64,000 nucleotides of DNA, from NCBI GenBank assembly GCA_030691735.1, contig JAUYDS010000118.1, positions 21,536-85,535 on the forward strand, written 5' to 3'. The position numbers were made by a program, and so were the translations under genes. Positions 18,467 through 64,000 of the stretch are shown here, one piece after another (within the stretch, counting starts at the first letter, position 1; every line of letters starts with the position of its first letter). The notes beneath the pieces are model-generated. The model made no database searches. It worked only from the letters and a program-made list of their open reading frames with translations, and was not told where the DNA came from. The DNA comes from Candidatus Aminicenantes bacterium. Lineage in GTDB: Bacteria > Acidobacteriota > Aminicenantia > Aminicenantales > UBA4085.

Positions 18467-18635
18467 GATCGCTTCCTTATTCCGAATTCCTTTTCCTTGG
18501 CCTCGCCGTCAGCTTAAATCGGCCTCCAAGAGGGGTCAATCACCCCTAAAGATGAAAAAAGGGGTGATATTTCCCTTGGGGATTGTCACCTCCCGCATTG
18601 ACGATGAAGCAAGCTTCGTTTAACATGGAGGCCAC

Positions 18636-18774
18636 AGCGGCCGGGGCCCCGGGCTTTGCAGTCCTCATTCGCGAAGCGAATGAGGGCGGGCTTTGCTCGG
18701 GGGTCCACTTCCGCCGTACTCGCCCGTGAATATAAGCCACGGGCGAGTGGCGAGCCGAAGGCTCGTCCCTTGAC
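18636..18774 (+). repeat. Mosaic palindromic repeat element family A, copy 3 (intergenic)
   Basis: Modules: GGCCGGGGCCCCGGGCTTTG, the CCTCATTCGC-GAA-GCGAATGAGG hairpin, the GTACTCGCCCGTG...CACGGGCGAGTGG hairpin, and the GAAGGCTCGTCCCTTGAC end. Confidence 0.85.
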
Positions 18775-18794
18775 TGACGATTCGGAGAGTGGAT

Positions 18795-20609
18795 ATGCAA
18801 GCAGTCATTTTAGCCGCGGGCATGGGCAAACGCCTGGGAGATCTCACCCGGCATTCCACGAAATGCATGGTCAAGGTCAACGGCAAGCGCCTCATCGAAC
18901 ACGCCTTGGACGCCCTTTTGGCGGCCGGCATCCGGCATGTGGTGATGGTCGTCGGCCACGGCGCCGACGAGCTCAAAGCCTTCCTGGGAGACGCGTACAA
19001 GGGCGCCAGAGTCGATTATGTTCTCAATCCCATCTACGCGAAGAGCAATAACATTTATTCGCTGTTCCTCGTTCGCGCCTTCATGGAGGCCGATGATTCC
19101 CTTCTCCTTGAGAGCGACGTCATCTTCGACCCCGCCATCATCGAAGACTGTTTGGCCGATCCTTCGCCCAACCTGGCCATCGTGGCCAAGTTCCAGTCCT
19201 GGATGGACGGCACGGTCACCAAGCTCGATGACCGGGAATTCATCTCCTGTTTCGTTTCGAAGAAGGAGATCGTCTGGAGCGACCTGGATCAATATTTCAA
19301 GACCGTCAACATCTATAAACTGTCCAAGGCGTTCAGCAAGGAGAGGTTTTTCCCTTTTCTCGAGGTCTATATCCGGGCCAAGGGGCTCAATGAATATTAC
19401 GAGGAGGTCCTCAAAATCCTGACCTTCATCGATCAGGGAAGCATCAAAGCCTTCGACATCAGCGACAGGCTCTGGTATGAGATCGACGACCTCCAAGACC
19501 TCGACATCGCCGATGCCTTGTTCTCCCGCGGCTTGGACAAGCTCAAGGCTTTGTATCAGAGATTCGGCGGGTATTGGAGGTTCCCGGCGCTCAAGGATTT
19601 CTGCTATCTGGTCAATCCCTATTTTCCCGCGCCGCGGATGGTCCACGAGATGATCCGCAGCTTCCCCCAGCTCCTGACGAGCTATCCCTCGGGCCAAAAG
19701 GTCCAGAACCTGTTGGGCTCTAAGCTGCTCGGCTGTCCCCCCCAGCAGGTGCTCGTGGGCAACGGCGCCTCGGAGCTGATCAAAGGCCTCGTGCCGGAAT
19801 GCGGGGGACCGTTGGCCTTGTCCGTTCCGACGTTCGATGAATATCGGGCCGGCGCTCCCAAAGACCAATGGCGCGTTTTTTATCCGGCCCCCGGGACGTT
19901 CGACTATTCCGGCGATCAGCTGGCCGATTTCTGCGCCGCCCAGAAGGTCTCGACGCTGATTCTGATCAACCCCGACAACCCCAGCGGCCATTTTCTGGCG
20001 AAGTCGGATGTCCTCAGGCTCCTCGAGAGACTTCGGACGATGAACGTCCGGCTGATCCATGACGAATCCTTTGCCGATTTCGTCGACGGAACGACCGATC
20101 ACTCCCTGATCTCACCCGACATCCTGGACCGCTTTCCGAATCTCGTGGCGGTCAAGAGCATCAGCAAGTCCTACGGTGTGCCGGGTCTCCGCCTGGGGAT
20201 CATCGCCTCGGGGGATCTCGGTCTCCTGGAACGGGTGAAGAATCGCCTGTCCATCTGGAACATCAATTCCTTCGCCGAGCATTTCCTCCAGATCATCGAC
20301 AAATACAACCATGATTTCCGCCACGCCTGCCGCAACATCGGCGCGGAGAGAGAGCATCTGTTCGAACGGCTCCGGGAGATCTCCTTCCTCCGTCCGATTC
20401 CTTCCAAGGCGAATTATATTCTGTGCGAGGTCAAGGCGCCCTGGACCCCGACGCGTCTGGCCGAGACTCTCTTGAACGCCTCCTGGCTCTTCATCAAGGA
20501 CTGCACGGGGAAGATCGGTTTCGAAAAAACGCCCTGCATCCGGTTGACGGTTCGCGATCGGAACGATAACGAGTTTCTCATCTCGGCCTTGAAAGCCCTC
20601 GACAAGTAG
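18795..20609 (+). CDS. Bifunctional protein: N-terminal LicC-like CTP:phospho-alcohol cytidylyltransferase fused to C-terminal PLP-dependent class I/II aminotransferase-fold enzyme (CobD/HisC-like)
   Basis: N-domain: QAVILAAGMGKRL, NPIYAKSNNIYSLFL, LWYEIDDLQDLD (LicC-like). C-domain: VAVKSISKSYGVPGLRLGI PLP-lysine motif, INPDNPSG. Likely ATG at 18795 (GTG at 18789 possible). Confidence 0.7.
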   Translation: MQAVILAAGMGKRLGDLTRHSTKCMVKVNGKRLIEHALDALLAAGIRHVVMVVGHGADELKAFLGDAYKGARVDYVLNPIYAKSNNIYSLFLVRAFMEADDSLLLESDVIFDPAIIEDCLADPSPNLAIVAKFQSWMDGTVTKLDDREFISCFVSKKEIVWSDLDQYFKTVNIYKLSKAFSKERFFPFLEVYIRAKGLNEYYEEVLKILTFIDQGSIKAFDISDRLWYEIDDLQDLDIADALFSRGLDKLKALYQRFGGYWRFPALKDFCYLVNPYFPAPRMVHEMIRSFPQLLTSYPSGQKVQNLLGSKLLGCPPQQVLVGNGASELIKGLVPECGGPLALSVPTFDEYRAGAPKDQWRVFYPAPGTFDYSGDQLADFCAAQKVSTLILINPDNPSGHFLAKSDVLRLLERLRTMNVRLIHDESFADFVDGTTDHSLISPDILDRFPNLVAVKSISKSYGVPGLRLGIIASGDLGLLERVKNRLSIWNINSFAEHFLQIIDKYNHDFRHACRNIGAEREHLFERLREISFLRPIPSKANYILCEVKAPWTPTRLAETLLNASWLFIKDCTGKIGFEKTPCIRLTVRDRNDNEFLISALKALDK

Positions 20610-20686
20610 CTCCGGCGGCTTTTCGGTTGGCCGATCGATAAAGCGAGGGATATACCTTTTGATCTGGTCTCCCATCCTATATGTCG

Positions 20687-20715
20687 TTGACAAATCAAGG
20701 GATGGACGATAGAAT
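20687..20715 (+). promoter_or_regulatory. Sigma70-like promoter upstream of proS (TTGACA-17-TAGAAT)
   Basis: TTGACA 20687-20692, 17-nt spacer, TAGAAT 20710-20715, about 30 nt upstream of the GTG start. Confidence 0.5.
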
Positions 20716-20744
20716 GTCTGGAGATTTCACCCCTGGAGAAGATC

Positions 20745-22199
20745 GTGAGCAAAGACGAACGACAGGTCAAGAAGATCACCCCGAAGACCGAGGATTTTTC
20801 CCGCTGGTATGTCGAGATCGTCCAGAAGGCGGAACTTGCCGATTACACGCCGATGAAGGGGATGATGGTCATCCGGCCGTACGGCTATGCCATATGGGAG
20901 AACATCCAGCGGCTGATGGACCAGCGGATCAAGGCGACCGGACACGTCAACGCTTATTTTCCGCTTTTCATTCCGGAGAGCTTTCTGAAAAAAGAGGCCG
21001 AGCATGTCGCCGGATTCACGCCCGAGGTGGCTTGGGTCACCATGGGCGGCAAGGAAGAACTGGAAGAAAGACTGGCCGTCCGCCCCACGTCCGAGGCCAT
21101 CATCGGCTATATGTACTCGAAGTGGATCAAATCCTGGCGCGATCTGCCGATCTTATATAATCAATGGGCCAACATCGTCCGCTGGGAGAAAGTGACGCGG
21201 CCCTTTCTCCGGACGACCGAGTTCCTCTGGCAGGAAGGCCATACTTGCCACGAGACCGCCGAGGAGGCCGAGGCCGAGACGCTCAAGGTCCTGGGCTTCT
21301 ACAAGGAATTCTGCGAGACCGAATTAGCCATCCCCGTCCTCGCCGGGCGCAAGACCCTTCGAGAGAAGTTCGCCGGCGCCCAAATGACCTACGCCATAGA
21401 AGCGTTGATGTCGGACGGGAAAGCGCTTCAGATGGGAACGTCGCACAACCTGGGCCAACATTTTTCCAAGGCTTTCGACATCAAGTTCGAGGACCGCAGC
21501 CAGACCCTCCAGTACGTCTGGCAGACCTCCTGGGGCACGACGACCCGCATGATCGGAGCGCTGATCATGGCCCATGGAGATGACTCCGGGCTGAGACTGC
21601 CTCCCCGCGTCGCGCCGATCCAGGCCGTGATCGTGCCTATCTCCATGGGCAACTGGAAAGAAAGCATCTTGCCAAAGGCCCGCGCCGTCGAAGACAATCT
21701 GAAGAAAGCCGGCGTCCGAGTCTCCCTGGACGCTCGGGAGGAGTTCACCCCGGGTTGGAAATTCTCCGAGCACGAAATGCGGGGCATCCCCCTGAGGATC
21801 GAGATCGGGCCCCGGGATGTCGCGGCCGGCCAGGCGGTCCTCGTCCGCAGGGACAGGAAGACCAAGGAGACGGCGCCGCTGGATGTGCTGACGGTCAAAG
21901 TGCCGGCCCTGCTCGACGAGATCCAGGCCTCCCTGTTCCAGGAAGCGACGAAGTTTCTCGCGGACAACACGCGCGCGGCCGGAACATATGAGGAATTCAA
22001 GGACATCCTCGAAAACAAAAAAGGATTCGTGACAAGCCTGTGGTGCGGATCCGAATCCTGCGAGGACAAGATCAAGAACGAGACCATGGCCACGATCCGG
22101 ATCATCCCGCTCGAAAACGAAGAGCGGTCCGGCCGGGGCGCCTGCGTTTGCTGCGGCCAGGAGGCGAAGATCCTGGCCTATTTCGCCCGGGCCTACTAG
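20745..22199 (+). CDS. proS: Proline--tRNA ligase (archaeal/eukaryotic-type short form)
   Basis: Class II aaRS motifs; ~480 aa without INS editing domain; C-terminal zinc-binding-like domain; GTG start. Confidence 0.88.
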   Translation: MSKDERQVKKITPKTEDFSRWYVEIVQKAELADYTPMKGMMVIRPYGYAIWENIQRLMDQRIKATGHVNAYFPLFIPESFLKKEAEHVAGFTPEVAWVTMGGKEELEERLAVRPTSEAIIGYMYSKWIKSWRDLPILYNQWANIVRWEKVTRPFLRTTEFLWQEGHTCHETAEEAEAETLKVLGFYKEFCETELAIPVLAGRKTLREKFAGAQMTYAIEALMSDGKALQMGTSHNLGQHFSKAFDIKFEDRSQTLQYVWQTSWGTTTRMIGALIMAHGDDSGLRLPPRVAPIQAVIVPISMGNWKESILPKARAVEDNLKKAGVRVSLDAREEFTPGWKFSEHEMRGIPLRIEIGPRDVAAGQAVLVRRDRKTKETAPLDVLTVKVPALLDEIQASLFQEATKFLADNTRAAGTYEEFKDILENKKGFVTSLWCGSESCEDKIKNETMATIRIIPLENEERSGRGACVCCGQEAKILAYFARAY

Positions 22200-22207
22200 A
22201 AAAGAGA

Positions 22208-22840
22208 ATGCGCAACGATTTTTCCTCCCTCCGGGAGAAAATGGTCGAGGTCCAGATCGCGGGGCGGGGGATCAGAGACCTCAAAGTCCTCGAGGCCATG
22301 CGCGGCGTCCCTCGCGATGCGTTCGTGCCCGAGGACTTGAAGGGCCTCGCTTACGCCGATGAACCCTTGCCGATCGGACATGGGCAGACTATTTCCCAGC
22401 CCTACATCGTCGCCTATATGACCGACGTCCTCGAGCTCAAAGGCGGGGAGAGCGTGCTGGAGATCGGAACGGGTTCGGGGTATCAAACGGCCGTGCTGGC
22501 CAGCATCGCCAAGGAGGTTCGTACGGTCGAGACCGTCGCCGCCCTGTCTGAGGGGGCTCAGGGCTTGTTGAACAGCTTGGGATTCACGAACATCCGTTTC
22601 AAGATCGGGGACGGGACGTTCGGCTGGGAGGAGTTCGCGCCCTATGACGCGATCATGGTCACGGCCGCGCCGGCGGCCATCCCCAAAGCCCTGAAGGAAC
22701 AGCTCCGCATCGGCGGACGAATGATCGTCCCCGTCGGTGCCGAAGATCAACAGCTCGTTCTGATCCGCCGCGAGGAGACCTCGTTCCCGGAAACGCGTCT
22801 GCTGCCCGTTCGATTCGTCCCCCTCGTCTCGGTCCATTGA
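22208..22840 (+). CDS. pcm: Protein-L-isoaspartate O-methyltransferase
   Basis: SAM-binding VLEIGTGSGYQTAVLA; ISQPYIVA motif; start at the internal Met of ORF 22040..22840. Confidence 0.88.
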   Translation: MRNDFSSLREKMVEVQIAGRGIRDLKVLEAMRGVPRDAFVPEDLKGLAYADEPLPIGHGQTISQPYIVAYMTDVLELKGGESVLEIGTGSGYQTAVLASIAKEVRTVETVAALSEGAQGLLNSLGFTNIRFKIGDGTFGWEEFAPYDAIMVTAAPAAIPKALKEQLRIGGRMIVPVGAEDQQLVLIRREETSFPETRLLPVRFVPLVSVH

Positions 22841-22929
22841 AGCGGAGCGGGGATCCCTCCCGATCACCGAAAAAAAACCTTGCCGTGCGGTCCTTCTCGT
22901 TTTATGATTTAAAAACGACAGAGGTCAAG

Positions 22930-23400
22930 ATGACAAGACGAATGACGGGCTCATTTCTTTTAACGCTCCTCGCCGGCAGCCTGCTCTTCTGTCAAGGGGT
23001 CCGCCGCGACAAGTTCATCAAGATCTACCTTCCCGATGGACGATCCGTCACAGCCGAGCTGGCCGTGTCGGACGAGGAACGCCAGCGCGGTCTGATGTTC
23101 CGGGAAAAGCTCCAGCTTGATCAGGGGATGCTGTTCGTGTTCGAAAGGGAATCCGCATATGCCTTCTGGATGAAGAACACGCTGATCCCGCTGGACATGT
23201 TGTGGGTTGACAAAGACCGGAGGATCGTTCACATCTGGCGGAACGTCCCGCCCTGCAAGGAGGATCCCTGTCCTTCCTATGCGCCGGACCGGCCCGGGCT
23301 TTATGTGCTCGAGCTCGCGGCCGGCGCGTCCGACCGCTTCGGGCTCAAGCTGTTCGATCGGCTCGAATTCACGCTTCCCAAGATCAAGCCGCGTTCATGA
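22930..23400 (+). CDS. DUF192 domain protein (secreted)
   Basis: Signal peptide plus conserved IPLDMLWVDKDRRIV / GxxxVLEL pattern of DUF192 (COG1430). Confidence 0.65.
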   Translation: MTRRMTGSFLLTLLAGSLLFCQGVRRDKFIKIYLPDGRSVTAELAVSDEERQRGLMFREKLQLDQGMLFVFERESAYAFWMKNTLIPLDMLWVDKDRRIVHIWRNVPPCKEDPCPSYAPDRPGLYVLELAAGASDRFGLKLFDRLEFTLPKIKPRS

Positions 23401-24281
23401 GCGTTCTGGCCGGATATATTAAATCTCTCAAACGCCTCGAGGTCGAGGAGCTGGCCGATATCTATATCTATCGTCCCCTGGCCTTTCTCCTGGTCAAAGG
23501 CATCTACCGGACCAATATCACCCCCAATCAGATCACCATGGTCTCCCTGCTCGTCGGCATCTTGGCCGGCATCAGCTTCGGAGTGGGCTGTCGCCCGGCC
23601 GTCATTTTTGGCGGGATGATCTATGGACTGTCCATCGTCCTCGACTGCGCCGACGGTCAGCTCGCCCGGCTTAAAAAGAACGGGACGCGGCTGGGCCGGA
23701 TCCTGGACGGTCTGATCGATTACATCGTCACCGTGGCCGTTTATCTCGGGATCGGCATTGGTCTCGCGCCCGCTTCGGACCATCCTCTCCTGTGGTGGGT
23801 CATCCTCGCCGCGACCGGGGCCAGCCACGTTTTCCATTCCCTCTCGGTCGATTACTACCGAAGCCGTTTTCTCGATCATGTCGAGGGTTCGTCCGCTTCC
23901 GACGAGGACGACTTCCGGTCGTTTAAAGCCGATCTGGACGCTCTCAGCGCGAGCCAAGGCCAGCTCCTTCGCAAAGCGGTTATCGGCCTGTACCTGAGAT
24001 ATCTGAACCTTCAGAAGAGAATGACCTCCCGGGCGGCCGGCGCCGGCCGAGGCCGACGGGTCAGCGCGGACGCGTTTTACGCCAGGAACAAGACGGCCAT
24101 GCGCGGCTGGACTCTTCTCGGCTCGTCCATGGGAGGCCTGCTGCTGATCATATCGGCCTTCCTTGGGCGGTTCGATATCTATTTCTGGGGGAGGATCGTC
24201 GTGATGAACCTCTGGGCGGCGGTCATGTATATCGTCCAGTTCAGGATCGATCACGGCCCGGCCGAAGAAACCGCGCCTTAG
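23397..24281 (+). CDS. CDP-alcohol phosphatidyltransferase family protein
   Basis: DCADGQLARLKKNGTRLGRILDGLIDYI matches D-G-x2-A-R-x8-G-x3-D-x3-D; multiple TM segments. Confidence 0.8.
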   Translation: MSVLAGYIKSLKRLEVEELADIYIYRPLAFLLVKGIYRTNITPNQITMVSLLVGILAGISFGVGCRPAVIFGGMIYGLSIVLDCADGQLARLKKNGTRLGRILDGLIDYIVTVAVYLGIGIGLAPASDHPLLWWVILAATGASHVFHSLSVDYYRSRFLDHVEGSSASDEDDFRSFKADLDALSASQGQLLRKAVIGLYLRYLNLQKRMTSRAAGAGRGRRVSADAFYARNKTAMRGWTLLGSSMGGLLLIISAFLGRFDIYFWGRIVVMNLWAAVMYIVQFRIDHGPAEETAP

Positions 24282-41135: not shown

Positions 41136-41214
41136 AGACACATATGGAATTCCTCAGTATTTGCGAAAATCGAGTATCCATACCGAATTCTAAAGAATTC
41201 GGTATATGTCCCCA
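41136..41214 (+). repeat. Repeat family C hairpin (ATACCGAATTC-TAAA-GAATTCGGTAT) upstream of tRNA-Gly
   Basis: Perfect 11-bp inverted repeat containing EcoRI sites; related copies at 41411 and 47093. Confidence 0.7.
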
Positions 41215-41317
41215 ATCTCTTGGATCTCCTCCAGGTTGACAAGAGGGGCGTTTCCGTTTAAATTCTATCTCCCGCCGGCCGACGACGACTCTTTCCGGGG
41301 GAGGGAGAGCGGGCATA

Positions 41318-41389
41318 GCTCAATGGTAGAGTACGGGCTTCCCAAGCCCGGAGTTGTGGGTTCGAGTCCCATTGCCCGCTCTATCTCCC
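41318..41389 (+). tRNA. tRNA-Gly (anticodon CCC)
   Basis: Cloverleaf: acceptor GCGGGCA/TGCCCGC, anticodon stem CGGGC/GCCCG with loop TTCCCAA, T-arm GTGGGTTCGAGTCCCAT. Confidence 0.85.
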
Positions 41390-41410
41390 CCAGTTTAAAG
41401 GTGATGAAGA

Positions 41411-41452
41411 GGGGACACGTACCGAATTCTCCGGAATTCGGCACAGGTCCCT
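41411..41452 (+). repeat. Repeat family C hairpin (GGGGACACGTACCGAATTC-TCCG-GAATTCGGCACAGGTCCC) downstream of tRNA-Gly
   Basis: About 18-bp imperfect inverted repeat, 22 nt after the tRNA; could act as a terminator. Confidence 0.65.
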
Positions 41453-41481
41453 CCGTTGAAAATGTGTCCTCTTGTTTTAAA

Positions 41482-42306
41482 ATGAAGACCTGGCACCTGC
41501 TCATCGAACCCGCCCCCTTGACAGGCTCCCTCAACATGGCCGTCGATGATTTCCTGTTCCATTCCGCGGTGTCGACGGGCCGCACGTTTCTTCGGTTCTA
41601 CCAGTGGCAGCGGCCGACGGCCTCCCTCGGAGCGACGCAGAACGTGGCCAAGGTCATCGACCTCGATTTCTGCCGCAATCATGGGATCGATGTCGTCCGC
41701 CGGATCACCGGGGGCAAGCTCGTCCTCCACCATCGGGAGATCACCTATTCGATCTGTTCCTCTGATGAGGCGACGTTCACGCCGACCCTGGCCGGCTCGT
41801 ACAAGCTCATTTCCCGGGCGCTTCTCCGCGGCCTGGAAAAAATGGGGATTCGGCCCTCGTCGGCCGAACAGGCGCCGCCGTTCTACGCGAAGAGCGATCT
41901 GCCCTGTTTCTCTCATCCGGCCCGGGATGAGATCGAAGTCGACGGCAAGAAGATCATCGGCAGCGCCCAGAAAAGGACCGGGAGCCGGTTCCTTCAGCAC
42001 GGCTCAATCCCGCTGGCCCATGATGAAGGCCTGCTCAAAGCCGTATCGCTCCGGGGAGCGGACCCGGCCGAGATCCGGATGACCTCTCTTTCCGAGGTCT
42101 TGGGCCGGCCCGTCGATTTCGCTTGGGCGGTCGAGCGGCTGGCCGTGGGATTCAAAGAGTTCTTCGGAGTTCGGTTCGAGCCGTTGGCGTTCGGAGCCGA
42201 GGACCTGGTCCGCATCCGCGATATCCAACGGTCTAAATACGATGACGAGGAATGGACGCTCCGCGGCAGGACCCGCGTCGGGGCCCCGACAGACCTTGAT
42301 TCCTGA
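41482..42306 (+). CDS. Lipoate-protein ligase A / octanoyltransferase family (BPL_LplA_LipB catalytic domain)
   Basis: Catalytic-domain-only protein (~275 aa) with the conserved lysine region (KKIIGSAQKRTGSRFLQHGSI). Confidence 0.7.
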   Translation: MKTWHLLIEPAPLTGSLNMAVDDFLFHSAVSTGRTFLRFYQWQRPTASLGATQNVAKVIDLDFCRNHGIDVVRRITGGKLVLHHREITYSICSSDEATFTPTLAGSYKLISRALLRGLEKMGIRPSSAEQAPPFYAKSDLPCFSHPARDEIEVDGKKIIGSAQKRTGSRFLQHGSIPLAHDEGLLKAVSLRGADPAEIRMTSLSEVLGRPVDFAWAVERLAVGFKEFFGVRFEPLAFGAEDLVRIRDIQRSKYDDEEWTLRGRTRVGAPTDLDS

Positions 42307-48232: not shown

Positions 48233-49977
48233 ACATGTTTTGCTCGGGGAGGAATGTTATTGAGTTCGCGAACGGTGGACGGGCCGACCTCCGGTTCTAT
48301 TTTGACGGCCGATCGGGCCGGCCGGAAATCGTTGCCGCTGAGGACGATGTCGTTCGTCCGCCGACCCGAGAACCGGAAGAACTCATCTGTTCCCAGAGCG
48401 GCCCGGCAGTTCCGGACCAGAGCCCCTTCGACCTGATGGAAAAGCACCGCCGGCGCGGTCTTGGCTTTTTCTGTCGCGGCCTGGCGCCCCACAAACCCGT
48501 CCAATTCGAGGCCCTGGACCTCATCCAGGCACAGAGCGCTTTCCCACTTCGCGTATTCCAGGCCGTCCCAGACGATCTCGACGTTCCTCAGCTTGAGGTT
48601 CCGGGCCCATTTGAACGTCAGGGCGTGAACGGCCTTATCGTAAGGCGCGGCTGGGTCGTGGGCGATGAACAGCGTCACGTTGTCCATCGTGATCCCCTCC
48701 AGCCAGCTGTCGGGATGCCCGTTGCAGACGCTGGCGCCCTGGCCGCGGGCGATGACGTTGGTGATCTTCACGTTCCGGATCCGCCCGGCCGGCCGGTCGT
48801 CCTCTTTTTTCCAATTCTTGTGCACCTCGCTCCGTTTCTTGATGTTGAAATGGAACGGCTCGCCGTCGCCCCACCAGAACCAGGCATAGCGGACGCAGTC
48901 GATGGTCAGATTGGACAGGACGACGTTCTCCACCACGCCGCCGTCGAAGTTCATGAAGGAGATGCCGCGATTGGCCTTGGTGATCACGCAGTTGTCGATG
49001 GTGACGTTCCGGACCGCGTTCATGTTGCCGTCGCAGAACTTGATGGCGCTCGAGGCGGAGGAGAGGCGGCAGTTGGTCACGGTGATGTTCTCGCAGGGGA
49101 GGGCCGGGCCGAACCAGTTCATGGAATAAAAGACGAGCGCGTCGTCGCCGGTTTCGATGGTGCAGTTCGAGATGCGGAGGTCCCTGCAGCCGTCAGGATC
49201 GATGCCGTCGGCCCAGACGCCGTCCTTGAGGCTGGAGCGGATGAATACGCCGTCGATGACCGTCCGTTCACAGCCGTAGAGATGCATGGTCCAAGACGGG
49301 GAATCGATGAAATTCAGGCCGCTGATGCGGACGTCCCGGCAGCGCAGCAAAAGAACGAGCTTCCCGAACTGGTCCTCCTTGGGGAAGCTGCGGACGAGCG
49401 GTTTGCCGAGCTTTTCCATCTCGACCTGGTTCGGGTAAATGAAGTCGTCGTGAAAATCTCCCTTCGGCCGGTAAACATAGCCGCCCTGGCCGTCGATGGT
49501 GCCCCGGCCTTCCAGGCTGATCTGGGTCAGGTCTTCGCCGTAGAACAGGGCGTCCTTGTCGAACGCCGCTTTGTTTTTGATCGAATAGATCGTCGCCCCC
49601 GCTTCGACGAAGAAACGGACATGGCTGCGGAGATGGATCGTCCCCGTCGCATATTGCCCCGGCGGAACATAGACCTGGCCGCCGCCCGCCGCGGCGCAAG
49701 CGTCCACGGCGGCCGGGGCCCCGGGCTTTGCCCGGGGGTCCACTTCCGCCGTACTCGCCCGTGGATACAAGCCACGGGCGAGTGGCGAGCCGAAGGCTCG
49801 TCCCTTGACCGCCTTTTGGATCGCCGCTTGAGCGCTCCCGGCCTTCGTTCCCGTCGCCCCGAAGTCCCGGATGTTGAAGATTTTTTGGCCCGACTGGCCG
49901 GCGAGGGCGGAAGGAATGAAAACGATCCCTCCCCAAACGATGATCCCGATCATTCTTCTGGCGAGCACGGTTCTCAT
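48220..49977 (-). CDS. Glycoside hydrolase family 28 (polygalacturonase-like) secreted enzyme carrying an in-frame family A repeat insertion
   Basis: GH28 parallel beta-helix motifs (NFIDSPSWTMHL, DGIDPDGCRDLRISNC, TGDDALVF); signal peptide; 34 extra residues (VKGRAFGSPLARGLYPRASTAEVDPRAKPGAPAA) between the conserved AIQKA and VDACAAAGGG. Confidence 0.8.
   Translation of the reverse strand: MRTVLARRMIGIIVWGGIVFIPSALAGQSGQKIFNIRDFGATGTKAGSAQAAIQKAVKGRAFGSPLARGLYPRASTAEVDPRAKPGAPAAVDACAAAGGGQVYVPPGQYATGTIHLRSHVRFFVEAGATIYSIKNKAAFDKDALFYGEDLTQISLEGRGTIDGQGGYVYRPKGDFHDDFIYPNQVEMEKLGKPLVRSFPKEDQFGKLVLLLRCRDVRISGLNFIDSPSWTMHLYGCERTVIDGVFIRSSLKDGVWADGIDPDGCRDLRISNCTIETGDDALVFYSMNWFGPALPCENITVTNCRLSSASSAIKFCDGNMNAVRNVTIDNCVITKANRGISFMNFDGGVVENVVLSNLTIDCVRYAWFWWGDGEPFHFNIKKRSEVHKNWKKEDDRPAGRIRNVKITNVIARGQGASVCNGHPDSWLEGITMDNVTLFIAHDPAAPYDKAVHALTFKWARNLKLRNVEIVWDGLEYAKWESALCLDEVQGLELDGFVGRQAATEKAKTAPAVLFHQVEGALVRNCRAALGTDEFFRFSGRRTNDIVLSGNDFRPARSAVKIEPEVGPSTVRELNNIPPRAKHVHRP
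49703..49809 (+). repeat. Mosaic palindromic repeat element family A, copy 6 (inside the GH28 gene)
   Basis: TCCACGGCGGCCGGGGCCCCGGGCTTTGCCCGGGGGTCCACTTCCGCC-GTACTCGCCCGTG...CACGGGCGAGTGG-...GAAGGCTCGTCCCTTGAC. Confidence 0.85.
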
Positions 49978-61772: not shown

Positions 61773-61858
61773 GCCGGAGTGGCGGAACTGGCAGACGCGC
61801 TGGACTCAAAATCCAGTCCCTGGAAACAGGGGTGTGGGTTCGATTCCCTCCTCCGGCA
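61773..61858 (+). tRNA. tRNA-Leu (anticodon CAA)
   Basis: Acceptor GCCGGAG/CTCCGGC, anticodon loop CTCAAAA, long variable arm, T-arm GGTTCGATTCC. Confidence 0.85.
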
Positions 61859-62274
61859 CACTCTCAACACTTTATAAATAAGTAAGTTACGAGGGCCTCC
61901 GAATAGGTCCGTCCCCCTCTTTCGGTTCATGGTCAATGGAGCCAAAATACCATAAAATACGCAAGTTTCAACCCTCAACACAAAAGGTGAGACGAAAGGT
62001 CGTTTTCCCTCGCCCCCGCAAAAAAGCGGAAAGAAAATGGAGTGTCTTTTTTCGCCATAGATTCGGCCAATGAATCTATTCGACGTTGGACATCGCCGGC
62101 CACGTCAAATTTTGTTCGCATTTTCGGGGCCATCGTTCCTTCTTCAATTGGCTGCCTGTAACATGACGAGATCGTAAGCTCGAGCCATTGAGCGATGAAC
62201 CTTTATCTCTTCTTTATTATGGGCTTTACGCCAATGCCCACCGGGGAAAGGTGCGGAAAGCGGGCGTCTCCCCC

Positions 62275-62310
62275 TTGACTCATTACGGCCACAAAGAAGT
62301 ATAATGACCA
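62275..62310 (+). promoter_or_regulatory. Near-consensus sigma70 promoter (TTGACT...TATAAT) in the AT-rich islet
   Basis: TTGACT 62275-62280, TATAAT 62300-62305 (18-19 nt spacer). Confidence 0.4.
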
Positions 62311-62398
62311 TCCAGCGTCGCTTCGCTCCGATCAGTGGCCGTTTTGAACCGGAATCACTGGCCGGATTGACCGGAATATACAAGAAGGGGAGGTTATA

Positions 62399-62560
62399 AT
62401 GGGAGTCCTTCACAACGGGAAAGAAAAGTTAGAAAATCTTATAAGAAAAACTAGAATTCAAAGGAACGAGCAGAAAAAGAGGACACAAAGAAAGAGCGAA
62501 AAAAATAAGCTTATATTGCAGCTTACGATTCCTTCCCGTCGGGGAAGAAGAAAAAAATGA
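62399..62560 (+). CDS. Hypothetical small highly basic protein (53 aa, Lys/Arg-rich, rare codons)
   Basis: RBS AAGGGGAGG 6 nt upstream of ATG; below the 60-aa cut-off of the ORF track; AGA/AGG/ATA/TTA codons atypical for the rest of the window. Confidence 0.3.
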   Translation: MGVLHNGKEKLENLIRKTRIQRNEQKKRTQRKSEKNKLILQLTIPSRRGRRKK

Positions 62561-62615
62561 TTACAGTCAATAATCTTGATTGAAAAAAACAATTTAAGCT
62601 TTAAAGGAGTTAACA

Positions 62616-62852
62616 GTGAAAGAACTCGTTGAAATGATTGTCAAATCATTAGTGGACAAGCCAGACCAAGTGAAGGTTTCCCAATTAGACGGCCAACAGA
62701 GCTCAATCATCGAATTAAATGTTGCTCCGGAAGATGTAGGTAAGGTTATTGGGAAGCAGGGAAGAAACGTTCAGGCCATCAGAGTTATTTTGGGTGCTGC
62801 AGGAATGAAGCTGAAAAAGAGAATTAATCTCGAGATTATAGAAAAAAGATAA
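62616..62852 (+). CDS. KH-domain RNA-binding protein KhpA-like
   Basis: MKELVEMIVKSLVDKPDQVKVSQ......IELNVAPEDVGKVIGKQGRNVQAIRVIL matches the KhpA/UPF0109 KH fold (GKQG = GxxG loop); RBS AAAGGAG. Confidence 0.7.
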   Translation: MKELVEMIVKSLVDKPDQVKVSQLDGQQSSIIELNVAPEDVGKVIGKQGRNVQAIRVILGAAGMKLKKRINLEIIEKR

Positions 62853-63537
62853 CTTGGTCAGGATGGGAAAATGATTGTCTGTTGGCGTTGATTGTCGTTT
62901 GGCATAAGGGGAAAAAAGAGGAATCACCAAAAAAAGAAGCAAATCAATGACAAAAGAAAAAGAGAAAAGAGACAGAGAAAAAAAAGAAAAGGCGAAAAGA
63001 AAAAGAGAAAAAAGCGGGAAAGAGAAAAATAGAACTTCAAAGGATAAGAATTTCGTTTTCCGCTACACTGGCTGAATAAGCATTCATCCGCCGGTTTTAC
63101 CTCGTCCCATCCTCAGGGATGATAAATCGTGACAAGATGGGATTTCAAATCGAGTTTAAAATAGCGGAAGGCGGGCCAAGGAACCGCGGGCAAGCTCAAG
63201 AACGCCGGACTCCCTGCTGCCTACGTCGAAACGGAACTTCAGCCAGTTAAACAATATCTCCTTCCGTTCGTTGGGGCCTACGAGATCGCCACGTCGCTTC
63301 GCTCCTCGCGATGACAGGCTCTATCGGCAATTTTGGGCTCCGTCAGAAGACTTGCTCCCGCCGCAGATTGTCATTAAACTTAAGTTCTAATCTTCATAGA
63401 AAACATGGACAGCAAGAGAATGGGGACTTCTAGGAAAATCCTGGCAGCTTATCTCGTCCTGCCGCTTATAGGGTCACCACTCCAGAATTACCGTAACACC
63501 GATATTTTTATTTAGATGGAAGCCTAAAGGGGGAGGG

Positions 63538-64000
63538 ATGGGATTAGGAGCAATGATTAAGAAGGGGAAGGGTAATCTTCTCCAAAAAACGGCCCTGGCC
63601 GCATATAAGCTGGCGGTTGTGTTTGCCGCGCTAATTGTCACTCCGGCGGCCGGCCGGGCGGAACCGTGTCCCGGCCCCCAAGCTGCCGCGGAACACATCC
63701 CAGGCCTTTCCGTCCGGCTGACTTCTCCCAACGGCGGCGAAGTCTGGAAAGCCGGAGAAAAGCGGACGATTACCTGGCTTGTTTCTGAAGGGGCTGACAT
63801 CACAGGCATCACCATCCTCTACTCCACGGATTCCGGATCCACGACGGAGCTTGTAAAGAGCCTTCAGGAGAATCCTGCTTCCTTTACCTGGAACGTCCCG
63901 CATCTCGCGTCAACGGGCTGCCTTGTGTTGATCGAAGTGTCCGACTTGAAGGGCAACCGCGCCCGGGATCAAAGTGACTCAACCTTCACCATCACGAAGC
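63538..64000 (+). CDS. Hypothetical secreted protein (N-terminal part; continues past window end)
   Basis: Open frame from ATG 63538 to the window end; signal peptide (LAVVFAALIVTPAAGRA); repeated ...SP.GGE.W..G....I.W... / Y.W.VP pattern of a small beta-sandwich domain. Confidence 0.5.
   Translation, partial: MGLGAMIKKGKGNLLQKTALAAYKLAVVFAALIVTPAAGRAEPCPGPQAAAEHIPGLSVRLTSPNGGEVWKAGEKRTITWLVSEGADITGITILYSTDSGSTTELVKSLQENPASFTWNVPHLASTGCLVLIEVSDLKGNRARDQSDSTFTITK

Follow-up and report, generated by a model that had tools for sequence, protein, structure and literature searches.

A 64,000-nucleotide stretch of contig JAUYDS010000118.1 from a Candidatus Aminicenantes bacterium (hereafter the window; positions 21,536 to 85,535, forward strand, of assembly GCA_030691735.1) contains two genes that raise the question of whether their products could together make, activate and transfer an amino-alcohol head group. 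The first (18795..20609, plus strand) encodes a 604-amino acid fusion of a LicC/PntC-like nucleotidyltransferase with a CobD/SMUL_1544-like pyridoxal 5'-phosphate (PLP) enzyme, and the second (23397..24281, plus strand) encodes a 294-amino acid integral membrane cytidine diphosphate (CDP)-alcohol phosphotransferase, hereafter the transferase. The catalytic residues of all three domains are intact, and the three activities are physically associated across phyla. On balance, we favor the view that the two genes constitute a three-activity head-group module that follows Kennedy-type logic.

The fusion protein and its two domains

The open reading frame (ORF) of the fusion spans 18789..20609 on the plus strand, with a likely start at the ATG at 18795, which has GGAG before it. 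The two domains were assigned with Pfam, NCBIfam, PDB comparisons, AlphaFold and Foldseek. Pfam matches NTP_transf_3 (E 5.6e-14, residues 3-134) and NTP_transferase (E 1.7e-11) in the N-terminal half and Aminotran_1_2, the class I/II PLP domain (E 3.6e-22, residues 314-598), in the C-terminal half, and the AlphaFold model is confident (pLDDT 88.3, pTM 0.81). This is the two-domain assignment proposed by an earlier, sequence-only reading of the window, and the motifs and gene coordinates that it quoted were all found in their places in the ORF translation: QAVILAAGMGKRL at residues 2-14, NNIYSLFL at 85-92, LWYEIDDLQD at 226-235, and SISK at 455-458, which includes K458.

The closest public relatives of the fusion are metagenome-assembled genomes (MAGs) of Candidatus Aminicenantes. 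Among at least 8,000 candidate homologs, the best 120 are mostly about 600 amino acids in length, are 49-93% identical to the window protein, and nearly all cover 96-100% of it. The fusion is a conserved full-length architecture, and its domain matches are far beyond chance. An alignment of 15 homologs from seven or more phyla, Aminicenantes, Margulisbacteria, Thiomargarita, Clostridia, Bacteroidota and the archaeon Methanosarcina among the lineages, has a mean column identity of 64%. Residues G9, G11, R13, K23, E106, D108, E229, D231, D423, K458, and R466 are invariant in it, and because catalytic residues are invariant across phyla, both domains look catalytically competent, as judged from sequence.

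The N-terminal domain (18795..19529, plus strand; residues 1 to ~245 from Pfam and PDB matches) carries a G-x-G-x-R loop at residues 9-13, K23, NNIYSL at 85-90, ESD at 106-108, and WYEIDD at 227-232, all invariant in the alignment. It possesses the MobA/LicC-type fold, the G-x-G-x-R...K signature and the acidic metal ligands of LicC-type enzymes. Pneumococcal LicC (1jyk) is matched with an E value of 3.6e-14 over residues 2-108, the second half of the domain aligning poorly, and the phosphonate cytidylyltransferase Tde-PntC (6pd1) is matched with an E value of 9.9e-14 over residues 2-239, the whole length of the domain. The earlier claim of a close resemblance to LicC and the phosphonate cytidylyltransferases is thus right as to family and overstated as to closeness, the likeness to LicC being moderate. 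None of the lic operon genes (licA kinase, licB permease, licD) was found in the scanned ORFs of the window.

The C-terminal domain (19578..20606, plus strand; residues ~262-604 from TIGR01140, 6oux and Foldseek) is a fold-type I PLP domain. It carries NPDNPSG at residues 392-398, DESF at 423-426, the Schiff-base lysine K458 (codon 20166..20168), and R466, again invariant. Its best curated model is CobD TIGR01140, with 153.8 bits over residues 262-600 against a cut-off of 290.55; the hisC model TIGR01141 scores lower (117.6 bits, cut-off 276.55). The nearest PDB sequence is 6oux (E 5.6e-41, 29% identity, residues 267-602), the Foldseek library title of which is 'SMUL_1544, a decarboxylase from Sulfurospirillum multivorans', whereas HisC structures and Salmonella CobD reach only about 1e-19 to 1e-22. 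We take SMUL_1544 to govern norcobamide synthesis and to make ethanolamine phosphate from serine phosphate. In Foldseek comparisons, 6oux gives a TM-score of 0.78-0.84 (29% identity), CobD 1lc5 gives 0.86 (21%), and HisC about 0.8 (23-25%). The fold-type I fold and K458 are present in the domain; cobamide gene context was not seen in the window or in the related loci inspected.

These results agree with the earlier claims of an SxSK motif, here SISK with K458, and of membership in the group that includes threonine- and serine-phosphate decarboxylases; within it, the domain is nearer to SMUL_1544 and the CobD model than to HisC. The opposite outcome that the sequence-only reading had allowed for, a HisC-like C-terminal domain joined to an inactive nucleotidyltransferase, is contradicted by the higher score of the CobD model and by the nucleotidyltransferase signature that is intact in the 15 homologs. 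Neither CobD, HisC nor LicC has the fusion as an equivalog, the scores lying below the cut-offs or the gene context being different.

The transferase and the gene partners of both proteins

Pfam PF01066 (CDP-OH_P_transf) matches the transferase with 46.7 bits (cut-off 22; E 5.8e-12). Hydropathy and AlphaFold (pLDDT 84.1) indicate about six transmembrane (TM) helices and an 85-amino acid polar cytosolic insert between TM4 and TM5. A six-frame regular-expression scan located the catalytic motif D83-x2-D86-G87-x2-A90-R91-x8-G100-x3-D104-x3-D108 at 23643..23720 on the plus strand (DCADGQLARLKKNGTRLGRILDGLID). It is the sole such motif in the six frames of the window, and it is invariant in 14 orthologs. 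With the Pfam match, the intact motif and a gap of 2,787 bp, the CDP-alcohol phosphatidyltransferase family member that had been predicted about 2.8 kb downstream of the fusion is confirmed. Among solved relatives, AF2299 is nearest (E 2.9e-9) and also tops the Foldseek list, followed by PIPS (1.5e-6) and IPCT-DIPPS (5.1e-6).

In the window, the fusion and the transferase are separated by genes for prolyl-tRNA synthetase (ProRS; 20745..22199), protein-isoaspartate methyltransferase (PCMT; 22205..22840) and a DUF192 protein (22837..23400), the stop of which overlaps the transferase start by 4 bp. A gene for LpxB lies on the opposite strand, convergent with the transferase. In another Aminicenantes MAG (locus L009), where the fusion is 65% identical, the order is ProRS, PCMT, DUF192, fusion, transferase, with 3 bp between the last two, and the transferase is a 46%-identical ortholog of that in the window. 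More distant CDP-alcohol transferases lie directly 3' of the fusion in three loci from deltaproteobacteria; in one of these, L019, the two genes overlap by 8 bp. A Campylobacterales operon places one two genes 3' of the fusion, along with a methyltransferase, LicD, and two GT4 genes.

Orthologs of the transferase with 46-49% identity, in Bacteroidota, Ignavibacteria and Acidobacteriota-labeled MAGs, occupy the middle of a three-gene cassette comprising Aminotran_1_2 (about 350 amino acids), CDP-OH_P_transf and NTP_transferase (about 245 amino acids) genes with 4-bp overlaps. Examples are L089 6952-9625, L090 6940-9709 and L091 5269-7930, with 39 further metagenome loci within L092-L169. Local synteny in the Acidobacteriota-labeled cassette MAG equals that of the window. 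It was also observed that the cassette occurs widely among Bacteroidota, Ignavibacteria and Aminicenantes-like MAGs, and that a protein of about 270 amino acids with a LysE-type translocator domain flanks it in 17 loci (e.g., L108 4084-4887).

Relatives of the transferase were found in at least 502 metagenome loci. To quantify the association, 80 loci from a metagenome scan seeded with the transferase alignment alone were examined. Full PLP-enzyme/transferase/nucleotidyltransferase cassettes were present in 39, and the fusion lay directly upstream in 6. A further 13 were compatible partial loci at contig ends, and 5 had one partner adjoining. Neither partner was present in 7 despite informative flanks, 6 were uninformative short contigs, and 4 were partly informative with no partner seen. 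Co-occurrence of fusion and transferase across related genomes had been set beforehand as a test of the sequence-only reading, and it proved strong, both in the 3-bp gap of L009 and in the 39 plus 6 of 80 loci.

A single Aminicenantes site, with the order GerE ... ProRS, PCMT, DUF192, transferase and convergent LpxB, displays four arrangements of the supply genes (window, L009, L094, L089, L095, L097): the fusion upstream of ProRS, as in the window; the fusion abutting the transferase; an unfused aminotransferase/nucleotidyltransferase cassette; and the transferase with no partner within 6 kb. The cassette PLP enzyme is only 23-27% identical to the fusion C-terminal domain, and the cassette nucleotidyltransferase 31-42% identical to the N-terminal domain, values that rule out simple fission or fusion between the two versions. 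Instead, the unfused aminotransferase and nucleotidyltransferase appear from their sequences to be different subfamilies recruited to the same transferase. The association of the three activities recurs in several phyla, with varying gene order and whether or not the enzymes are fused, and synteny alone does not account for it.

The distribution of the fusion was determined by scanning a single genome for each GTDB species, which confirmed relatives in at least 585 species genomes. Gut and rumen Bacteroidales make up most of the carriers among the matches listed, the others including Treponema, Akkermansia, Fibrobacter, deltaproteobacteria, Campylobacterales, and Clostridia, and in these lineages the gene occupies surface-glycan loci. 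Unbiased clustering of neighbors in 85 fusion loci placed LicD no more than 4 kb away in 49, and found a Wzx-type flippase in 18 and GT2 in 12. In Methanosarcina, a TagF-type Glyphos_transf gene is directly upstream of the fusion. Neither the window nor the majority of family loci has a threonine kinase or choline kinase gene beside the fusion. The family's general role appears to be the de novo provision of a CDP-activated primary-amine head group for whichever phosphotransferase is encoded alongside.

Two further groups of genes accompany the fusion. The gene directly downstream in 52 of the 85 loci encodes an oxidoreductase of either the Octopine_DH family (32; e.g., L015 2424-3434 and L028 11815-12837) or the OCD/mu-crystallin family (20; e.g., L016 11815-12762, L002 11880-12821 and L007 11800-12744), never both. 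These genes are on the same strand with a median gap of 6-15 bp, and LicD is usually nearby. This suggests that the head-group amine is joined to a 2-oxo acid by an opine-type reductive condensation and that the resulting glycan substituent would be an N-(1-carboxyalkyl)ethanolamine phosphate, a group that occurs in Proteus O-antigens. S-adenosylmethionine-dependent methyltransferases adjoin the fusion in Margulisbacteria, Campylobacterales and another lineage (L003/L004 9276-9980; L023 216-2003 and 3821-4510; L008 12009-12776), which would fit N-methylation of the head group, e.g., stepwise to phosphocholine without external choline.

Minus-strand genes upstream of the fusion encode housekeeping and regulatory proteins (CoaE, PilZ, a GerE regulator, Lnt, RF, MazG, RibF), and the ORFs scanned, of at least about 90-200 amino acids and covering most of 1..50 kb, are housekeeping genes; beyond about 50 kb, ORFs were checked by motif scan and Rfam. 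Just upstream of the fusion, 18627..18794 is a GC-rich, strongly structured repeat (minimum free energy -97.9 kcal/mol, z -6.2) that is about 99% identical in L006, exceeding coding-sequence conservation. A second copy at 49708..49810 is without the inner hairpin of ~18660-18697. A riboswitch or leader for the fusion was considered and dropped, since the element is repeated in the window and matches nothing in Rfam; a REP/MITE-like element is the probable identity. A tRNA gene (41309-41380, 69 bits) lies within the 5' part of the longest lipoate-protein ligase ORF (41206-42306), and because the Pfam domain begins at residue 109, the true start of the ligase is probably downstream of the tRNA. 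G+C falls from about 0.60 to 0.47 in the final 2 kb of the window (61773-64000), after a tRNA gene at 61773-61858, and could be the edge of an integrated element.

Proposed reactions and alternative explanations

We propose that the PLP domain, through K458, would decarboxylate an O-phospho-amino acid, most likely O-phospho-L-serine from the serine pathway, and that the LicC-like domain would transfer cytidine monophosphate (CMP) from cytidine triphosphate (CTP) onto the phosphate, so that the fusion would release a CDP-amino alcohol, most likely CDP-ethanolamine. The overall reaction would be O-phospho-L-serine + CTP to CDP-ethanolamine + CO2 + pyrophosphate. By analogy with FrbH, cytidylylation may come first, converting phosphoserine to CDP-serine and then to CDP-ethanolamine. 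The six-TM transferase would then attach the phospho-amino-alcohol of this CDP donor to a hydroxyl group of a membrane-bound acceptor, releasing CMP, and with diacylglycerol, the simplest acceptor, would form phosphatidylethanolamine (PE) without PssA or Psd. The substrates, the order of the reactions and the acceptor are all inferred. The Kennedy-like CDP-amino-alcohol branch envisaged by the sequence-only reading is in this way supported at the level of comparative genomics, the enzyme activities being predicted.

Individual parts of the proposal differ in strength. It is very probable that the product of the fusion is an amino compound activated as a CDP or CMP derivative, and probable, if a little less so, that the fusion is functionally coupled to the transferase of the window. 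A CDP-head-group donor, rather than CDP-diacylglycerol, is indicated because a soluble LicC-like nucleotidyltransferase is always in the module, and because the solved structure of AF2299 contains bound CMP or CDP, and another of the closest relatives, IPCT-DIPPS, has its own cytidylyltransferase. Phosphoserine is favored as the likely substrate because SMUL_1544 has the top identity, the FrbH substrate is isosteric with it, and the neighborhood has no dedicated kinase; the missing kinase fits a substrate drawn straight from central metabolism. Phosphoethanolamine as the head group is nonetheless evenly balanced, mainly because the cassette PLP partner is HisC-like and not a split fusion C-terminal domain. 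Diacylglycerol is the simplest acceptor for the self-contained cassettes because they lack glycan genes, and as the acceptor that would give PE it is a tentative choice.

Several observations weigh against the proposal as a whole. The distance of 2,787 bp between the two genes of the window is filled by ProRS, PCMT and DUF192, with promoter-like sites before ProRS (11/12, sigma-70-like) and before DUF192 (9/12). Because three unrelated genes and a strong promoter-like site intervene, fusion and transferase are probably separate transcription units there rather than one transcript. Two closely related transferases, in L095 and L097, lack a partner within 6 kb. For the cassette PLP enzyme, the hisC model gives 207-233 bits (cut-off 276.55) and the CobD model 127-137, and its nearest PDB entry is a plant histidinol-phosphate aminotransferase (3.7e-44); it may be a transaminase making a different amino alcohol, which weakens the case for phosphoethanolamine as a universal head group. 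At 153.8 bits, the fusion C-terminal domain is by sequence not a CobD equivalog. The transferase matches CEPT1 and CPT1 with E values of only 0.11 and 0.28 (phmmer; Foldseek E 0.03, TM-score 0.37) and is not a CEPT1/CPT1/EPT1 subfamily member, although it may work like EPT. Finally, most of the fusion family is accompanied by LicD, flippases, and glycosyltransferases, which points to glycan and not lipid targets.

The first alternative retains the module with another head group, either (R)-1-aminopropan-2-yl phosphate from phosphothreonine, as in CobD, or the product of a HisC-type transamination of a keto-alcohol phosphate, which might turn dihydroxyacetone phosphate into serinol phosphate or a ketopentose phosphate into an aminopentanetetrol phosphate. 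We consider it unlikely. In its favor, CobD, a threonine-phosphate decarboxylase, provides the top curated model, its solved structures superpose no worse than that of SMUL_1544 (TM-score 0.84-0.86), and the unfused partner of the orthologous transferases is HisC-like. Decarboxylases and transaminases both occur in this PLP clade, as illustrated by Campylobacter Cj1436 (decarboxylase) and Cj1437 (transaminase). Identity to SMUL_1544, however, is 29% versus 21% to Salmonella CobD, the natural substrate of FrbH is isosteric with phosphoserine and not phosphothreonine, and no PduX/BluE-type threonine kinase was seen near the fusion. Either the HisC-like cassette enzyme also decarboxylates, or the two module types would give different, related amino-alcohol phosphates to orthologous transferases.

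About equally unlikely is a CDP-amino alcohol that is not destined for bulk phospholipid, the acceptor being a glycolipid, lipopolysaccharide, a lipid-linked glycan, ceramide, or a soluble compound, as for IPCT-DIPPS. The LicD genes of the 49 fusion loci, accompanied by Wzx, Wzy and glycosyltransferases, are in keeping with it, as are Glyphos_transf and AglB in Methanosarcina and the Campylobacterales CDP-alcohol transferase beside LicD and two GT4 genes. The solved structures closest to the transferase are those of AF2299 and IPCT-DIPPS rather than of CEPT1 and CPT1, which form lipids, and LpxB is the convergent neighbor throughout Aminicenantes. That adjacency, however, is limited to Aminicenantes synteny and involves the opposite strand, the cassettes of Bacteroidota, Ignavibacteria and Aminicenantes have no flanking glycosyltransferases, flippases or LicD, and a six-TM enzyme in a conserved, self-contained three-gene cassette suits a simple lipid acceptor.

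It is very unlikely that the two genes have no functional link, with the fusion a cobamide enzyme (CobD plus a CobY-like domain) or a glycan enzyme, the transferase a user of CDP-diacylglycerol of the PgsA or phosphatidylinositol phosphate synthase kind, and their proximity a matter of local synteny. The intervening housekeeping genes and promoter-like sites, the lack of partners in L095 and L097, and the weak top NCBIfam matches of the transferase to inositol-phosphate-type synthases would be consistent with this, and JGI labels some fusion members 'cobyric acid decarboxylase-like / GTP:adenosylcobinamide-phosphate guanylyltransferase'. Against it, the transferase, PLP enzyme and nucleotidyltransferase recur across phyla, fused or unfused and in differing order. 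The cobamide version is disfavored, as cobamide genes are absent near the fusion in the window and in every inspected locus and the N-terminal domain matches LicC and PntC, not a CobY model.

Least likely is a phosphonate route, in which a FrbH/PntC-like fusion would convert phosphonoalanine to CMP-2-aminoethylphosphonate and the transferase would form a phosphonolipid: FrbH, the only characterized protein of this architecture, and PntC-AEPT, the best two-domain structural match, do act on phosphonates, but the phosphoenolpyruvate (PEP)-mutase motif EDKxxxxxNS is absent from every frame of the 64-kb window, in agreement with the sequence-only reading that no PEP mutase is nearby, and only 2 of 88 family loci (L057 13698-13727 and L060 12601-12630) have it no farther than 10 kb from the fusion, while the PLP domain of PntC-AEPT is class V, not class I/II, and superposes on the fusion model at a root-mean-square deviation (rmsd) of 21 Å. 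In those two glycan loci, phosphonate and phospho-amino-alcohol decoration may coexist.

Returning to the Kennedy-type module, the transferase belongs to a clade of CDP-alcohol phosphotransferases that had no assigned function and that occurs widely across Aminicenantes, Ignavibacteria, environmental Bacteroidota and Acidobacteriota. It is possible, with somewhat less than an even chance, that these organisms have a PssA/Psd-independent aminophospholipid route, in which the fused enzyme would convert phosphoserine to CDP-ethanolamine, or the HisC-like enzyme and nucleotidyltransferase pair would provide a related CDP-amino-alcohol, for transfer to diacylglycerol or ceramide. If so, this would represent a de novo amino-alcohol Kennedy branch starting from a central metabolite, for PE or for a new head group, and would give a function to a large, generically annotated family (fusion and transferase alike). 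It would also provide a possible evolutionary origin for the antibiotic enzyme FrbH and testable candidates for the unexplained amino-head-group lipids of uncultivated sediment phyla and for phosphoethanolamine-type decorations on gut Bacteroidales glycans.

Comparison with known systems

The closest characterized enzyme is FrbH, from the FR-900098 pathway of Streptomyces rubellomurinus, which has the same domain order, with the class I/II PLP domain coming after a MobA/LicC-like NTP transferase. In FrbH, a 2-amino acid bearing a terminal phosphorus group is decarboxylated in conjunction with its CTP-dependent activation. The FrbH substrate is the carbon-phosphorus isostere of O-phosphoserine, and its product is an isostere of CDP-ethanolamine. 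Cytidylylation reportedly precedes decarboxylation. Whereas FrbH belongs to a phosphonate antibiotic cluster with a PEP mutase, the fusion of the window has no phosphonate context and its CTP-dependent decarboxylation is only predicted; the family at large occurs in its many species genomes mostly in glycan loci or beside a CDP-alcohol phosphotransferase. The PLP-domain lysines that a review quotes for FrbH or its S. roseosporus ortholog are K458, K568, and K573. Invariant lysines bear the same numbers, 458, 568, and 573, in the window protein and in 14 of 14 aligned homologs, and this agreement in numbering suggests, indirectly, that FrbH is a collinear member of the fusion family.

SMUL_1544 (6oux) and CobD (1lc5), the best sequence and structure relatives of the C-terminal domain, share its PLP lysine and surrounding motifs. 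They are stand-alone enzymes encoded in cob operons, and what they make is attached to the corrin ring, whereas the domain in the window is fused to a cytidylyltransferase and has no cob neighbors. PntC-AEPT (Tde1415) contains a class V transaminase, in contrast to the class I/II C-terminal domain of the fusion, and only the N-terminal domain matches (residues 2-239); superposition of the whole chain on the fusion model gives the 21 Å rmsd noted above with 16% identity (Foldseek).

LicC/LicD and PntC tailoring follow an activate-then-transfer logic, as described in PMC6697681. The fusion resembles these systems in its LicC/PntC-like N-terminal domain and in the LicD genes that lie near it in more than half of the loci clustered. 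LicC, however, depends on choline import and a kinase (LicA/LicB), and PntC on a PEP mutase, whereas the fusion has its own PLP enzyme and can make its head group de novo, and the transferase of the window is a CDP-OH_P_transf enzyme, not LicD as in the lic systems. AF2299 and IPCT-DIPPS of Archaeoglobus fulgidus share the six-TM core and catalytic motif with the transferase at 13-18% identity. The former is the enzyme solved in the CMP- or CDP-bound form mentioned above, and the latter is fused to a CTP:inositol-1-phosphate cytidylyltransferase; the window transferase has no counterpart of their N-terminal cytosolic domain and has the TM4-TM5 insert.

Bacterial PE is generally made from CDP-diacylglycerol via PssA and Psd. 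To our knowledge, choline and inositol are the only head groups for which a Kennedy-type route, with a CDP-head-group donor, is known in bacteria. In Treponema denticola, LicCA and a choline phosphotransferase constitute a bacterial Kennedy-like route. CDP-inositol-dependent synthesis of inositol lipids is described in PMC9246714 for Rhodothermus and for a putative cluster of the Bacteroides vulgatus type. As in the module, these choline and inositol routes place a soluble cytidylyltransferase beside a CDP-alcohol phosphotransferase and use a CDP-head-group donor; in the module, the supply enzyme is a PLP-dependent protein of HisC/CobD fold, not a choline kinase or an inositol-phosphate synthase. 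A full-text literature search, with subscription-only literature outside its reach, found no published description of the module. What is already known is the Kennedy-type logic; what is new is the PLP-dependent HisC/CobD-fold enzyme as a built-in source of the head group, together with a distinct clade of CDP-alcohol phosphotransferases of about 294 amino acids.

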